DNA of 64,000 nucleotides, taken from the NCBI GenBank assembly GCA_964492735.1, contig CAZBLE010000002.1:135-64134 (forward strand), in the 5' to 3' direction. Within the stretch, counting starts at the first letter, position 1, and each line of letters begins with the position of its first letter. The position numbers and the translations under genes are program-made. Shown here piece by piece: positions 28,715 to 39,649 of this stretch. Source of the DNA: an uncultured Gammaproteobacteria bacterium. Lineage in GTDB: Bacteria > Patescibacteriota > Patescibacteriia > UBA9570 > XYC2-FULL-38-9. The notes under the pieces were generated by a model. That model was not told the origin of the DNA, ran no database searches, and was given only the letters and a program-made list of their open reading frames with translations.

Positions 28715-30241
28715 ATGTCATTAAGCGCTCGCATTGCCAAGAACACCGCGATCCAAGCCGTTGGGAAAATCCTCGGTCTTGTTTTGGCGATTCTCGCTGC
28801 AGGAATTACATTGCGATACCTCAAAGATGAAGGAAATGGGTTTTACACGACCGTGACGGCCTTCTTGCAAATGTTTGGAATCGCGATTGACATCGGGCTG
28901 TATATTATATTGATCAAAAAACTGGCTGACGTTTCAGATGCAAGTTCAGAGGCAGGGAAGCGGCCAGAGTCTCGCGTGGTGAATGTGATTTTTACGTTGC
29001 GCGTTTTAACCGCGGTTGTTGTACTTGGCGCAGCTCCATTTATTGCGCTGCTTATTGGACGGTTTAATGATAATTATTCAACCTCGGTTGTATTTGCTAT
29101 CGCAGCAACAACGTTGTTCTATTTTTTCTTATCAATGAATCAGTTGCTCTCGGCAATTTTTCAAAAGTTTTTGCAAACACAATGGGTTGCAATTGGAGAG
29201 CTGACAGGAAAGCTTGTCCAATTTAGTTTAACGGTTTTGGTTGTTGCGCTTGGCGGCTCAGTGTTTTGGATGTTGATGATTTTAGTAGCGAGTGCGGGCG
29301 TGAATTTTTTCATCAATTTGTGGGCAAGTCGAAAGTTCATGCGTTTGCGCTTTGCGTGGGATGGTGACGTCGTGCGTTCTGTATTGAAGGAAGCGTGGCC
29401 AATTGCCTTATCAATTATCTGCACGTTGATTTATTTCAAAGGTGATACGTTTGTAATGACATTTTTTGAAACCAAGCAGGTTGTTGGGCAATATGGTGCG
29501 CCATATAAAATTCTTGAAGTACTTGTCACGTTTCCTGCCATGTTCGCAGGGCTCGTGCTCCCGATTTTAACGCAGGCGTGGAACGTTGGTGATCGTGATC
29601 GTTTTCAGCAGCTCTTTCAACGTTCGTTTGCGGCAATTTCAATCATCGCTATCCCTCTTTTGTTTGGCGTTCAAGTTCTTGCGCCGCAGATCATGACACT
29701 GATTGCAGGGTCTGATTTTGCCAGTGACGCTGCCGGAATGGAGCGCGTTGTGAATAGTTTGCGGATTTTGATTTTGGCAACAACAGCGATTTATTTTGGC
29801 ACACTCTTTGGCTATCTTGTGGTTGCGCTCAACAAACAAAAAACAATGCTTTTTGGATATGCATTTGTTGCGCTGACAGCAATGACTGGGTATGTGATTC
29901 TTATTCCGCGATTTTCTGTATACGGCGCTGCGTGGGTGACAGTCTATTCTGAGAGCATGATTGTGTGCATTGCGCTGACTATTATTTTACTCACTACGCG
30001 CGTGCGATTGTCATTCTATGCACCACTTGCGGCCCTTGTCTCAGCAGCGATAATGTATGGAGTCTTATATCTTCTGTTGCCTTTTTCAAGCGCATGGCAT
30101 AGTCTTCCTGATACACTCGCAGCTCTCGTAACCGTGGCTGTTTATGGTATTATTGGGGCAATTGTGTACGGTTGCGCATTGTTACTCACACGGGCAACAA
30201 GTGTGCAAGAACTCCGGTCTTTAGTTCAAAAGCGCGATTAA
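28715..30241 (+). CDS. Polysaccharide/oligosaccharide flippase of the MOP superfamily (Wzx/MurJ-like)
   Basis: ~14 predicted TM helices over 508 aa. The N-terminus ARIAKNTAIQAVGKILGLVLAILAAGI is typical of Wzx-type flippases. Confidence 0.6.
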   Translation: MSLSARIAKNTAIQAVGKILGLVLAILAAGITLRYLKDEGNGFYTTVTAFLQMFGIAIDIGLYIILIKKLADVSDASSEAGKRPESRVVNVIFTLRVLTAVVVLGAAPFIALLIGRFNDNYSTSVVFAIAATTLFYFFLSMNQLLSAIFQKFLQTQWVAIGELTGKLVQFSLTVLVVALGGSVFWMLMILVASAGVNFFINLWASRKFMRLRFAWDGDVVRSVLKEAWPIALSIICTLIYFKGDTFVMTFFETKQVVGQYGAPYKILEVLVTFPAMFAGLVLPILTQAWNVGDRDRFQQLFQRSFAAISIIAIPLLFGVQVLAPQIMTLIAGSDFASDAAGMERVVNSLRILILATTAIYFGTLFGYLVVALNKQKTMLFGYAFVALTAMTGYVILIPRFSVYGAAWVTVYSESMIVCIALTIILLTTRVRLSFYAPLAALVSAAIMYGVLYLLLPFSSAWHSLPDTLAALVTVAVYGIIGAIVYGCALLLTRATSVQELRSLVQKRD

Positions 30242-30250
30242 TTGTATTTC

Positions 30251-31345
30251 ATGTCTCATCAACCCCTTCGTATCGGTATTGATCTTGCAGCAACAGTCGG
30301 ACAAAAATCCGGCCTTGGTTTTTATGTTGAAAATTTGTATACAGAATTACAGAAATTAGAAGCTGATGCAGATGTGCATTTTGTGCCAATTGATCGAGTG
30401 CAAAAAAATCTTCGCACACCCTATCGCATGGCATGGGACCAAGTCGGCCTTCCGCTCACTGCATTGTCACGTGGAGTTGATATGCTTTTTGTGCCTGCGT
30501 TTTCTGCTCCACGATTTTTTCCAAAGCCAGTGGTGATGACAGCGCATGATGTCTTTGGCTTGAGCTACCCAGAGCAATTTTCTGGTATTGCAAAAACCTA
30601 CTGGACAAAAGTGCTGCCGGATTCCATGAAGCGAGCAAATCATCTTGTGGCTATTTCTGAGTTCACAAAGCAAGAAGTGATGACACACTTGCAAATACCA
30701 GAAGAGAAAATTACTGTCGTGCCAAATGCAGCCGCACCATATTATCGTTTACTCGATGATTCTGAGGCAGCCGCAACCCGTATTCGGAAACTCGGCGTGC
30801 GCGCGCCATTCATTGTGACAACCGGGACCATTGAACCGCGAAAAAATTATGAACGTTTAATTGACGCATTTGCATTTAGTAAGCGAGGAGACCATCAGTT
30901 AGTAATTGTTGGGAAGAAGGGTTGGAAATATGATGAGCTTTTTAAAAAGGTTCGAAAATATCATTTGGAAGATGCAGTGAAATTCGTTGACTACGTTGAA
31001 AACGAAGACATTGTTGCGCTCTATAATGCGTGCACATTTTTTATTGCGCCATCACTCTATGAAGGATTTGGGTTGCCGGCACTAGAAGCAATGCAATGCG
31101 GTGCGGCTGTGATGGTGAGTCAAAACACATCATTGCCAGAAGTGGTTGGTGATGCAGGAGTGCTATTTGATCCGTTTGATCCAGACGATATGCGAAAGCG
31201 AATGGATTTATTATTTGGTGATGTGAATTTGCGTCGAGCGATGCAGGTTCAATCAACTGCTCGTGCAACACAATTTTCTTGGAAAAAAACGGCTCAGCAA
31301 ACACTTGAGGTATTGCGACATGTGTATGAACAAACAAAAAAATAA
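30251..31345 (+). CDS. Glycosyltransferase family 4 (GT-B fold)
   Basis: EGFGLPALEAMQCGAAVMVSQNTSLPEVVGDAGVLFDP is the GT4 E-x7-E region. Confidence 0.75.
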   Translation: MSHQPLRIGIDLAATVGQKSGLGFYVENLYTELQKLEADADVHFVPIDRVQKNLRTPYRMAWDQVGLPLTALSRGVDMLFVPAFSAPRFFPKPVVMTAHDVFGLSYPEQFSGIAKTYWTKVLPDSMKRANHLVAISEFTKQEVMTHLQIPEEKITVVPNAAAPYYRLLDDSEAAATRIRKLGVRAPFIVTTGTIEPRKNYERLIDAFAFSKRGDHQLVIVGKKGWKYDELFKKVRKYHLEDAVKFVDYVENEDIVALYNACTFFIAPSLYEGFGLPALEAMQCGAAVMVSQNTSLPEVVGDAGVLFDPFDPDDMRKRMDLLFGDVNLRRAMQVQSTARATQFSWKKTAQQTLEVLRHVYEQTKK

Positions 31346-38074: not shown

Positions 38075-38080
38075 TATTCA

Positions 38081-39649
38081 ATGATTTCTCAGCGTGCATC
38101 TTTTCGATTCTCTTTGAAAAAGCAGCTTTTATTCTTGCTTCTATTGAGCGCGTTTCCATTTGGTGTCTATGCTGCTGATGGTTCAGGGACAAACGCGGTC
38201 AGCCCAACCTCTGTTGGTGTCAGCTCCACAGATCAAACATTTGCGTTTACCTACACCGCTGCTGAGGCATTAAATAGCGGGGGTCTGGCCATTACAATTC
38301 CTACGAGTTCGAGTTGGTCAACTCCGCAAGGGGTTGCTGGAACTGCTGGTCGCACAACTGCCAGCGTTTCTGGCTCGGCAATGATTGCTGATTCTATCAA
38401 CGAAGCAGACAGTACAACTGGATGGACAGAGGATGATAGCGATGCATGTAATACTATAACGCAATGGGCAGATGGCTGGGGGCTTGATACAGGGGTTTTT
38501 TATGAAACGACTGGCTCTATTTCGTGCGATAATGATGCTGATGCGGGTCCAGATGCGACAGATAGTTTTAGTTATGATTATGCGACTCCGCAAAACTTTT
38601 CGTCATATACAAAGCTCGGTTTCTGGTTTCGCACAAATACAACGATGAATAATAGTTCTATTCGTGTTGGACTTGATGACTCAGCGGCTTGCGATTCAAT
38701 TAATGATTTTTTAGGATTGCCAGCGATCAATGCCAATACATGGACGTATATCAATTGGACATTTGCTGGGGCAGGCTCAACCCGCTCTGCAGTGCAGGCC
38801 ATTTGTTTTTATGCAGCTGGAAATGCTGGCCTTGATGCGAAACAAATTTATATTGATGACATATTAATGGGTCCTGGGAGTCCAACATTTGTTGCGAATG
38901 GAAGTAATACAGATATTCGACTGCGTTTTTTACAAATGGCGTTAAATGAAACCGCAACAGTGACATACGGCGCTGGAGGAGGGACATCAGGTGTCGATTT
39001 GCCGAGCACTCCAGGTGTGAATACCATTACAACAAAATCTCGGGTTGATTCCAGTGGAACGCTCACCTCTATTGCAAGTTCGCCAACAATTACACTGACA
39101 ACACCGCTTGCCGTTTCCATTGTTGATAGTGGTGGGTCAACGGTTGGAAGTCCGTCTGTTGGGTTTAGTTCAACAACATTTCCGTTTGCTGCAACAACAA
39201 CGACTGGAACACTTGGGACCTCAAGTCAAAAAATCCGTGTAAGTAATGGAACTGGTGTTGGAACCTGGTCTGTGACAATGGCGCCAACATCTGGGAGCAC
39301 CGGTCTTTGGACATCTGGCGGAAATACCTATGATTTTAATGATAGTAATAGCAGTGGCTCAGATGATGCAGATACTGATACAAAAGGTGGGCGACTGACA
39401 GTCAACCCTGCTGGAATTACCGTGACGCCAGTATCTCCATGCGCATCGACGACTGGTGTGAGTGCGGGTAGTAGTAGTTCGTTTCGTGAAATTGCCACAG
39501 CAGTGAGTAGTATTACACTCGCCAGTGCGAGTTCAGGTGCGTCCGGGTTTTGTACATGGGATGTAACAGGGGTGGGTTTGAGCCAGGTGATTCCAGGACG
39601 TCAGCCAACAGGAACCTACACCCTGTCGTTTACGATTACAATTTCGTAG
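38081..39649 (+). CDS. Secreted 522-aa Ser/Thr/Gly-rich surface protein carrying the same C-terminal domain as the 36063-36755 protein
   Basis: Signal peptide LLFLLLLSAFPFGVYAADGSG. The C-terminal 190 aa align block-by-block with the upstream paralog. Confidence 0.6.
   Translation: MISQRASFRFSLKKQLLFLLLLSAFPFGVYAADGSGTNAVSPTSVGVSSTDQTFAFTYTAAEALNSGGLAITIPTSSSWSTPQGVAGTAGRTTASVSGSAMIADSINEADSTTGWTEDDSDACNTITQWADGWGLDTGVFYETTGSISCDNDADAGPDATDSFSYDYATPQNFSSYTKLGFWFRTNTTMNNSSIRVGLDDSAACDSINDFLGLPAINANTWTYINWTFAGAGSTRSAVQAICFYAAGNAGLDAKQIYIDDILMGPGSPTFVANGSNTDIRLRFLQMALNETATVTYGAGGGTSGVDLPSTPGVNTITTKSRVDSSGTLTSIASSPTITLTTPLAVSIVDSGGSTVGSPSVGFSSTTFPFAATTTTGTLGTSSQKIRVSNGTGVGTWSVTMAPTSGSTGLWTSGGNTYDFNDSNSSGSDDADTDTKGGRLTVNPAGITVTPVSPCASTTGVSAGSSSSFREIATAVSSITLASASSGASGFCTWDVTGVGLSQVIPGRQPTGTYTLSFTITIS

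Follow-up and report, generated by a model that had tools for sequence, protein, structure and literature searches.

The subject of this analysis is a stretch of 64,000 nt, hereafter the window, taken from contig CAZBLE010000002.1 (positions 135 to 64,134; assembly GCA_964492735.1) of a Patescibacterium deposited as an uncultured Gammaproteobacteria bacterium. The window carries a compact cassette of four genes (28715-34079) that encodes a Wzx-type flippase, a family 4 glycosyltransferase (GT4) and two adjacent Wzy_C proteins with the fold of the O-antigen ligase WaaL, here called WzyC1 and WzyC2. We propose that this cassette is a self-contained operon for an envelope glycan, one that has descended vertically in a large Patescibacteria clade and whose acceptor would most likely be a wall-linked or glycolipid-anchored polymer and not the proteins encoded beside it, and that the genes at 36063-39649 form a separate surface module of WxL-cluster type, unrelated to the cassette; taken as a whole, we give this proposal about an even chance of being correct. 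Very little has been characterised of the Patescibacteria cell envelope, through which these organisms make their obligate attachment to host cells. With its fixed flippase, its fixed WaaL-fold pair and its swappable glycosyltransferase, the cassette is a testable candidate for the source of a major Patescibacteria envelope glycoconjugate.

Pfam matches identified the four genes (Table 1) much as an initial annotation, made from the letters of the window alone, had described them: a flippase, a GT4 enzyme and two neighbouring Wzy_C genes in an operon-like run. WzyC1 and WzyC2 match the Wzy_C family (PF04932) with 64.2 and 62.3 bits respectively, for a gathering cut-off of 31.7. About 13 hydrophobic segments are found in the flippase, and the GT4 protein matches no NCBIfam equivalog at its cut-off. 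The open reading frame (ORF) listed for WzyC1 opens at 31263; its likely start is the ATG at 31347, 1 nt past the GT4 stop. With this start, the intergenic gaps across the four genes are 0, 1 and 9 nt. MurJ was also considered as the primary identity of the flippase and was dropped, since the protein scores only 48.1 bits against the MurJ equivalog TIGR01695, far below the cut-off of 235.55.

WzyC1 and WzyC2 are full-length paralogues of each other (hhalign probability 99.5%, 18% identity). Searches of the PDB with either single sequence returned nothing relevant and profiles were required: with family profiles, the sole solved match was the Cupriavidus O-antigen ligase WaaL (CmWaaL, 7TPG), at E-values of 1e-7 for WzyC1 and 5e-7 for WzyC2. 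The AlphaFold models of the two proteins are confident (pLDDT of 84.6 and 93.2, respectively), and both proteins display a polytopic WaaL-like fold. WaaL, PglL and MagA have in common an essential Arg/His pair, R288/H338 in EcWaaL, R298/H349 in NmPglL and R290/H323 in MagA (PMC3643930, PMC3485256), and the function of MagA is abolished by R290A as well as by H323A (PMC3485256). We took the roles of the catalytic residues from these two studies, and R265/H313 as the equivalent pair in CmWaaL. WzyC2 harbours the complete motif set (R293, P308, G311, G313, Y-P-H337-N338, G348 and G351). Among its close homologues, R293 is kept in 118 of 120 sequences and H337 in all 120; across 76 species, the residue at the latter position is His in 51 and Asp in 24, within the motif 'NPD[HQNE]'. 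No clear pattern emerged when the GT4 sequence type of related loci was compared with the His/Asp state of WzyC2.

WzyC1 differs at precisely this position. The equivalent residue, N384, is never His in the family, where 265 of 268 members have Asn. WzyC1 retains both Arg equivalents, R268 and R340, which align to R191 and R265 of CmWaaL, and eight positions are near-invariant in the family (R213, E220, R268, R340, N384, N385, E389 and E393). The mean column identity of WzyC1 is 50%, with sequences that are 40-50% identical overall, and of 1.84 billion cluster representatives, 519 belong to its subfamily at E<=1e-30. A Wzy_C protein without this His poses a mechanistic question, the residue being essential in every characterised branch of the family. 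The initial annotation had suggested that motif analysis would sort the two proteins into the PglL, WaaL or Wzy subfamilies. The PglL_A motif (PF15864), devised for separating PglL from WaaL (PMC3643930), finds no match in WzyC1 or WzyC2 at E<=0.01. The Arg/His motifs cannot distinguish between ligases, polymerases and O-oligosaccharyltransferases, because they are common to the three.

The conservation of the cassette was examined by a pattern scan with one genome per species, which detected a WzyC1 relative in 179 species. Eighty of the loci were fetched and six more were obtained from contig look-ups (individual loci are designated by L numbers); ORFs were called and searched with two sets of queries, the proteins of the window and the neighbours observed in related loci, and the counts of loci are given over those with enough flanking sequence. 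Over 84 related loci, the four genes are nearly always found together, and the complete cassette is present in about 80 species-level loci for the 179 species detected. A flippase gene lies upstream of WzyC1 in 70 of 70 loci, and WzyC2 lies downstream in about 73 of 77 (68 detected by phmmer, three hidden by ORF overlap and two being divergent Wzy_C proteins recognised by Pfam). The glycosyltransferase slot is occupied in relatives by one of two GT4 sequence types, or holds extra GT2, GT9 or GT4 genes. Such a slot that varies beside a fixed flippase and a fixed WaaL-fold pair is a pattern typical of glycan loci. Nearly all homologues bear the database names 'Patescibacteria group' or 'Candidatus Kerfeldbacteria'. 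Many of the metagenome-assembled genome records that carry the cassette (L009, L010, L015 and others) have the title 'uncultured Gammaproteobacteria bacterium', one has that of 'Bdellovibrionales', and the bins concerned have probably been mislabelled.

The surroundings of the cassette are conserved as well. A divergent SpoIID gene is located immediately upstream in 52 of 65 loci, an Amidase_2 hydrolase gene immediately downstream in 33 of 60 and within 8 kb in seven more, and VanW is found near the cassette in related loci. From these comparisons, the reconstructed ancestral order is [VanW RuvB bPH QueA] SpoIID(-), flippase GT WzyC1 WzyC2, Amidase_2 [L19 RluD LOG hyp320 FtsH](-), where brackets enclose flanking blocks. 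In the lineage of the window, the FtsH-to-RluD block sits upstream of the flippase in inverted orientation, and the adjacency of SpoIID and the amidase has been lost, which points to an inversion that would also have taken these two genes out of the neighbourhood. The inverted block (FtsH, hyp320, a methyltransferase, LOG and RluD) occupies 22531-28548 on the plus strand of the window, upstream of the cassette, whereas it lies downstream on the minus strand in most relatives (comparison with L016, L066 and L081). Its hyp320 gene (24904-25866, plus strand) encodes a 320-aa protein with six transmembrane segments and no family match, and adjoins FtsH in many related loci.

In several loci, genes for PMT_2/PMT enzymes, which belong to the glycosyltransferase class GT-C and depend on polyprenyl-phosphate sugars, are found between or beside the WaaL-fold pair (L017, 11391-12902; L029, 11322-12866; L081, 11259-12740; L054, 10115-11566; L077, 7908-9728). 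These inserted genes imply an extra decoration of the product or acceptor, predicted to take place outside the membrane in those lineages.

The genes for Ser/Thr-rich surface proteins that follow the cassette in the window show a very different distribution. The three genes at 36063-39649, encoding a small protein, a WxLIP-like protein and a large protein that share features described below, adjoin the cassette in only 1 of 41 loci. This sole locus is L001, whose WzyC1 is 68% identical to that of the window; database contigs of closer relatives (78% identity) appear to carry the cassette together with the WxLIP gene. The adjacency is therefore a feature of one narrow lineage. A TSP3-type membrane protein gene is located downstream of the cassette in 9 of 41 loci, always on the minus strand and normally after Amidase_2, and is an older, clade-level neighbour of the cassette. 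Closeness to the cassette brings no enrichment in proteins of at least 20% Ser+Thr: they number 6/328 within three genes of it and 8/337 further away (Fisher p 0.79). With the threshold relaxed to 18%, a mild excess appears near the cassette (25/328 versus 12/337). The initial annotation had taken co-localisation as a sign that the Ser/Thr-rich neighbours are glycosylation targets, an idea that these data do not sustain. The picture of a glycosylation machine beside its substrate draws on an adjacency that comparative genomics confines to one lineage, and the position of the cassette next to Ser/Thr-rich genes is best read as a local accident of gene order that provides no evidence for glycosylation of their products.

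The organisation of the window itself also separates the two sets of genes. WzyC2 and the TSP3 gene are convergent, and the 117-nt gap between them folds as one long hairpin with a minimum free energy of -55.5 kcal/mol (z -7.52; none of 200 shuffled sequences was as stable). This hairpin shows an A-run on its 5' side and a T-run on its 3' side, and it is probably a bidirectional terminator that marks the end of the cassette. A shorter hairpin is present at the equivalent position in L001 (12670-12700). The length of the window hairpin far exceeds that of a typical intrinsic terminator. Upstream of the flippase, weak consensus matches were found to a terminator (28602-28623) and to a promoter (28674-28702); the small surface gene is preceded by a promoter-like site with a TG extension (35985-36013) and followed by a terminator-like hairpin with a 10-bp stem (36772-36796). 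Overall, the counts obtained in the promoter and terminator consensus scans were not above shuffled expectation, and individual sites therefore lend weak support. From the layout of strands, hairpin and promoter-like sites, we infer that the cassette and the surface genes are separate transcription units.

Table 1. Cassette, boundary hairpin and neighbouring surface-protein genes in the window.
Feature	Coordinates	Strand	Characteristics
Wzx-type (MOP/PST) lipid-linked glycan flippase	28715-30241	+	Cassette gene 1; Polysacc_synt 78.2 bits, Polysacc_synt_3 66.8 bits
GT4 glycosyltransferase	30242-31345	+	Variable slot of the cassette; Glycos_transf_1 115 bits, Glyco_transf_4 49 bits
WzyC1, WaaL-fold Wzy_C protein	31347-32777	+	His-less 'IVNNEY' subfamily; most conserved cassette gene
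WzyC2, WaaL-fold Wzy_C protein	32787-34079	+	Canonical motif set R...P..G.G...YPHN...G..G
Long hairpin	34079-34188		Probable bidirectional terminator closing the cassette; between convergent WzyC2 and TSP3 genes
Type II membrane protein with TSP3 repeat	34197-35912	-	571 aa; TSP3_bac; collinear orthologue in L005; convergent neighbour, outside the operon
Small surface protein	36063-36755	+	Signal/anchor and domain X alone; first gene of the WxL-like three-gene module
WxLIP-like protein	36809-38074	+	Signal peptide, DUF916/WxLIP_PGBD (37.3 bits, cut-off 27.3), C-terminal transmembrane helix, Lys-rich tail
Large surface protein	38081-39649	+	522 aa; signal peptide, variable N-terminal region, C-terminal domain X

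We then considered what the cassette might make. Patescibacteria are regarded as lacking lipopolysaccharide (LPS). All ORFs of at least 120 aa between 20.6 and 46.2 kb, and most larger ORFs elsewhere in the window, were scanned; they encode housekeeping functions, a copper/thiol cluster and a number of envelope proteins of unknown type, and include no LPS, Wzz, core-oligosaccharide, LCP or initiating phosphoglycosyltransferase gene. LPS O-antigen synthesis was rejected on the basis of the taxonomy and of the absence of LPS genes among the scanned ORFs, and the view of the initial annotation, that this is a cell-surface glycan module of another kind, is supported. We infer a pathway of four steps. 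A phosphoglycosyltransferase encoded elsewhere would provide a polyprenyl-phosphate-linked primer, the GT4 enzyme would extend the lipid-linked glycan in the cytoplasm, the Wzx-type flippase would carry it across the membrane, and the two WaaL-fold paralogues would handle the undecaprenyl-diphosphate-linked glycan on the outer face. WzyC2, with its canonical Arg and His, could catalyse an en-bloc transfer, in the form of polymerisation or of ligation, and WzyC1, devoid of the catalytic His, could either perform a complementary step or act as an obligate partner.

A polymer of the envelope, anchored to the wall or to lipid, is favoured as the product because two distinct WaaL-fold paralogues are kept, as would be the case with a polymerase and a ligase, because the TacF/polymerase/TacL pathway provides a precedent in a bacterium without LPS (PMC5727136), and because the usual neighbours of the cassette are peptidoglycan hydrolases. 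However, several points weigh against this interpretation. The sequence is compatible with a lipid or wall acceptor and with a protein acceptor alike. The adjacency of SpoIID and the amidase is suggestive of a link with the cell wall, but unrelated housekeeping genes (RuvB, QueA, L19, RluD and FtsH) belong to the conserved block too, so that slow decay of gene order, instead of functional coupling, may account for this adjacency. Neither the scanned ORFs of the window nor the Pfam gene lists for five related loci (+/-10 kb) contain an initiating phosphoglycosyltransferase, an LCP ligase or a chain-length regulator. To assign a polymerase or a ligase role, or indeed any polymerisation, to one or the other paralogue would be a guess, and the canonical His is missing from WzyC2 too in 24 of the 76 species. 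The PMT_2 inserts of the GT-C class are as consistent with protein O-mannosylation as with decoration of the glycan. Finally, for the surface module that the proposal sets apart, domain X shows no detectable Pfam WxL match.

The alternatives differ mainly in the acceptor. If one or both Wzy_C proteins were O-oligosaccharyltransferases of the PglL/PilO type acting on the adjacent Ser/Thr-rich proteins, the retention in WzyC2 of the Arg/His pair on which PglL and WaaL both depend (PMC3643930) would be explained, and the hypothesis could also draw on the lack of LPS, on neighbours that are secreted or anchored with up to 30-33% Ser+Thr, and on the fact that pglL is located beside its target in 21 of 31 cases (PMC3643930). 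Nevertheless, we consider it very improbable. The adjacency is confined to the lineage of the window, the surface module also exists apart from the cassette, PglL_A is not matched, an opposite-strand gene and a strong hairpin intervene between the two sets of genes, Ser/Thr-rich proteins are not enriched near the cassette in relatives, and a single Wzy_C protein would suffice for an O-oligosaccharyltransferase, yet the pair is conserved.

The protein acceptors might instead be many. In a general O-glycosylation system, a short glycan would be made, flipped and moved by a WaaL-fold enzyme to numerous envelope proteins, such as pilins or an S-layer protein, whose genes could lie at any place in the genome. 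This arrangement is in keeping with a housekeeping cassette that is conserved and whose host is devoid of LPS, with the canonical motif of WzyC2 and with the PMT_2 genes inside the cassette in several loci. Pilins of Patescibacteria have been predicted to be O-glycosylated, in a study that calls glycosylation processes in this group "unexplored" (bioRxiv 10.1101/2024.11.25.624915). We find this hypothesis unlikely, as the PglL_A motif is lacking, no pilin or other candidate target is conserved next to the cassette, and the retention of two distinct WaaL-fold paralogues would be left unexplained. There is, lastly, a slim chance that the system is centred on peptidoglycan, with a MurJ-like lipid II flippase and a WaaL-fold pair working on lipid II or on a modified muropeptide precursor alongside the SpoIID and amidase neighbours, a role to be set beside the low score of the flippase against the MurJ equivalog.

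Within the envelope-glycan operon that we favour, the tandem WaaL-fold pair might be an undescribed two-component glycan ligase/polymerase that builds a clade-wide envelope polymer of Patescibacteria, with the His of WzyC1 replaced by Asn. This is a tentative idea, to which we give clearly less than an even chance. If true, the product would be a counterpart, in the Candidate Phyla Radiation (CPR), of teichoic acid or of a secondary cell-wall polymer, and WzyC1 would use a different catalytic arrangement, for which R213, E220, E389 and E393 are candidate residues. Our literature searches, combining Patescibacteria or CPR with O-antigen ligase, returned no paper on the cassette, on its pair of paralogues or on the subfamily without the His, and databases annotate the components simply as 'O-antigen ligase family protein'.

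The initial annotation had placed five genes for secreted or anchored Ser/Thr-rich proteins directly downstream of the Wzy_C genes. Four are supported between 34080 and 39649. Ser+Thr amounts to 33% in the small surface protein, 30% in the large one, 21% in the TSP3 protein and 17% in the WxLIP-like protein, for a window baseline of about 12%. In contrast, their position was misjudged, the TSP3 gene being convergent on the minus strand and the other three not being directly downstream, because this opposite-strand gene, the 117-nt hairpin and a divergent intergenic region intervene. The TSP3 protein consists of an N-terminal segment, a transmembrane helix near residue 135, an outer domain of about 300 aa and an acidic C-terminal tail with the TSP3 repeat, which is of a calcium-binding type. 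The repeat was correctly predicted by the initial annotation, with a TSP3_bac match that is marginal (25.6 bits for a cut-off of 25). Full-length orthologues of the gene were found in L001 (648 bits) and L005 (27% identity, collinear, E 2e-49). Several plus-strand ORFs over 34189-35884 (34189-34566 and others) were considered as genes and rejected as shadows of the minus-strand TSP3 ORF, because the latter has these conserved full-length orthologues.

The remaining three genes constitute the surface module. The small surface protein and the C-terminus of the large one share a domain, here called domain X, with 63% identity over 181 aa, and thus correspond to the two paralogous-domain proteins that the initial annotation had recognised. 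The ORF listed for the small protein spans 35898-36755; judging by the L087 homologue, its start is most likely the ATG at 36063. Orthologues of the small protein were found in L087 (231 aa, E 3e-85) and L088 (224 and 229 aa). The WxLIP-like protein has transmembrane segments at residues 16 and 315. Its homologues are few (47) and include proteins from other CPR lineages and Streptomyces proteins named 'WxL protein peptidoglycan domain-containing protein'. The same mini-operon is present in L087 (2215-8877) and L088 (1674-8942), with a protein of about 230 aa made of a signal and domain X, a WxLIP-like protein, and a large protein with domain X at its end (1639 aa, E 9e-50, in L087; 1219 aa, E 1e-37, in L088). 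These are unrelated CPR contigs, and no Wzy_C or flippase gene lies within reach of the module in either. L088 contains two WxLIP-like genes, one of which is a LysM fusion.

This arrangement recalls the WxL clusters of Firmicutes, which comprise a small protein limited to WxL, a large one that carries a WxL domain at its C-terminus and a membrane-anchored WxLIP, and which are defined by a minimum of one WxLIP along with two WxL proteins within a span of four genes (PMC10599100). The window module has this three-gene layout, its WxLIP-like protein combines the peptidoglycan-binding domain (DUF916, scored in Table 1) with a C-terminal transmembrane helix, and domain X ends in W-D-[LVMF], within a C-terminal motif C-x-W-D-[LVMF]-T-G. 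However, seven domain-X sequences gave no match at E<=10 to Pfam WxL, the domain that, with a dual W-x-L motif, is expected in the two flanking proteins of such a cluster; domain X matches no Pfam family, the host-binding domain WxLIP_HBD (DUF3324) was not detected even at E<=10, and the host is a Patescibacterium. Without Pfam WxL and DUF3324, the module is called WxL-like for its layout and not as a member of the family.

Other features of the window were noted in passing. A partial 16S gene is located at 1-979. ARAGORN predicted a tRNA-Ile with anticodon TAT (25872-25948, minus strand) and a tRNA-Ser with anticodon ACT (55537-55624, minus strand), both unusual in bacteria. The product of the plus-strand gene at 11220-15674 has 1484 aa and shows right-handed beta-helix/NosD repeats, a Ser+Thr content of 23% and transmembrane segments at both ends; a similar protein of 1614 aa is encoded in L002, just upstream of the RuvB gene beside the cassette. 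The copper/thiol-redox cluster spans 43942-52824 and includes a thioredoxin, a DsbD_TM-redoxin-Thioredoxin_10 fusion, an HMA-DsbD_2 protein, a P1B-type ATPase with HMA and a multicopper oxidase. A gene for a Fic/DOC-domain protein (42314-43228, plus strand) adjoins that of a 521-aa protein without family match (40695-42260, minus strand), which is conserved beside Ddl in L001.

Among known glycan systems, the Wzx/Wzy pathway of Gram-negative O-antigens with its WaaL-type ligase (7TPG/7TPJ) shares with the cassette a Wzx flippase of the MOP/PST type, encoded in the locus itself. It differs in its acceptor, as a Patescibacterium offers no LPS or lipid A-core, and in several components: no Wzz was seen among the scanned ORFs, and neither Wzz/PCP nor an initiating phosphoglycosyltransferase was found in these or in the five loci mentioned above, though both could be encoded elsewhere. 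The cassette, for its part, has two tandem WaaL-fold paralogues, of which WzyC1 departs from WaaL by the Asn at the essential His and by an unusually high conservation across species. The Klebsiella polymerase MagA (Wzy_K1, PMC3485256) resembles WzyC2 closely in its motifs, as R290, P305, G308, G310, H323-N324, G334 and G337 are all matched, and WzyC2 reads 'YPHNIF' locally as MagA does. In contrast, WzyC1 has no counterpart of the His whose replacement inactivates MagA, and both cassette proteins are conserved across the clade, unlike Wzy polymerases, which as a rule vary greatly from one serotype to the next.

The enzymes PglL, PilO and TfpO have in common with the cassette the Wzy_C domain and, in WzyC2, the Arg/His motif, and PglL types act without or apart from O-antigen ligation. 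They are set apart by the PglL_A motif, by the pairing of paralogues in the cassette and by the association with a target, the cassette having no adjacent pilin and only the infrequent WxLIP/domain-X (1/41) and TSP3-type (9/41) neighbours. A parallel in context is the teichoic acid pathway of S. pneumoniae, in which TacF flips undecaprenyl-diphosphate-linked teichoic acid and the Wzy_C protein TacL then ligates it to a glycolipid (PMC5727136). Here too, a flippase of the polysaccharide-transporter family and a Wzy_C protein are found together in a bacterium without LPS. The repeat-unit polymerase and the TacL ligase of S. pneumoniae are separate membrane proteins, and the cassette contains two Wzy_C proteins; the resemblance is one of context only, and no teichoic acid genes (such as those for choline or ribitol phosphate) were seen among the scanned window ORFs. 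Taken together, these comparisons identify the system as a variant of the known glycan assembly by Wzx and Wzy_C/WaaL-type proteins, and not as a new category.

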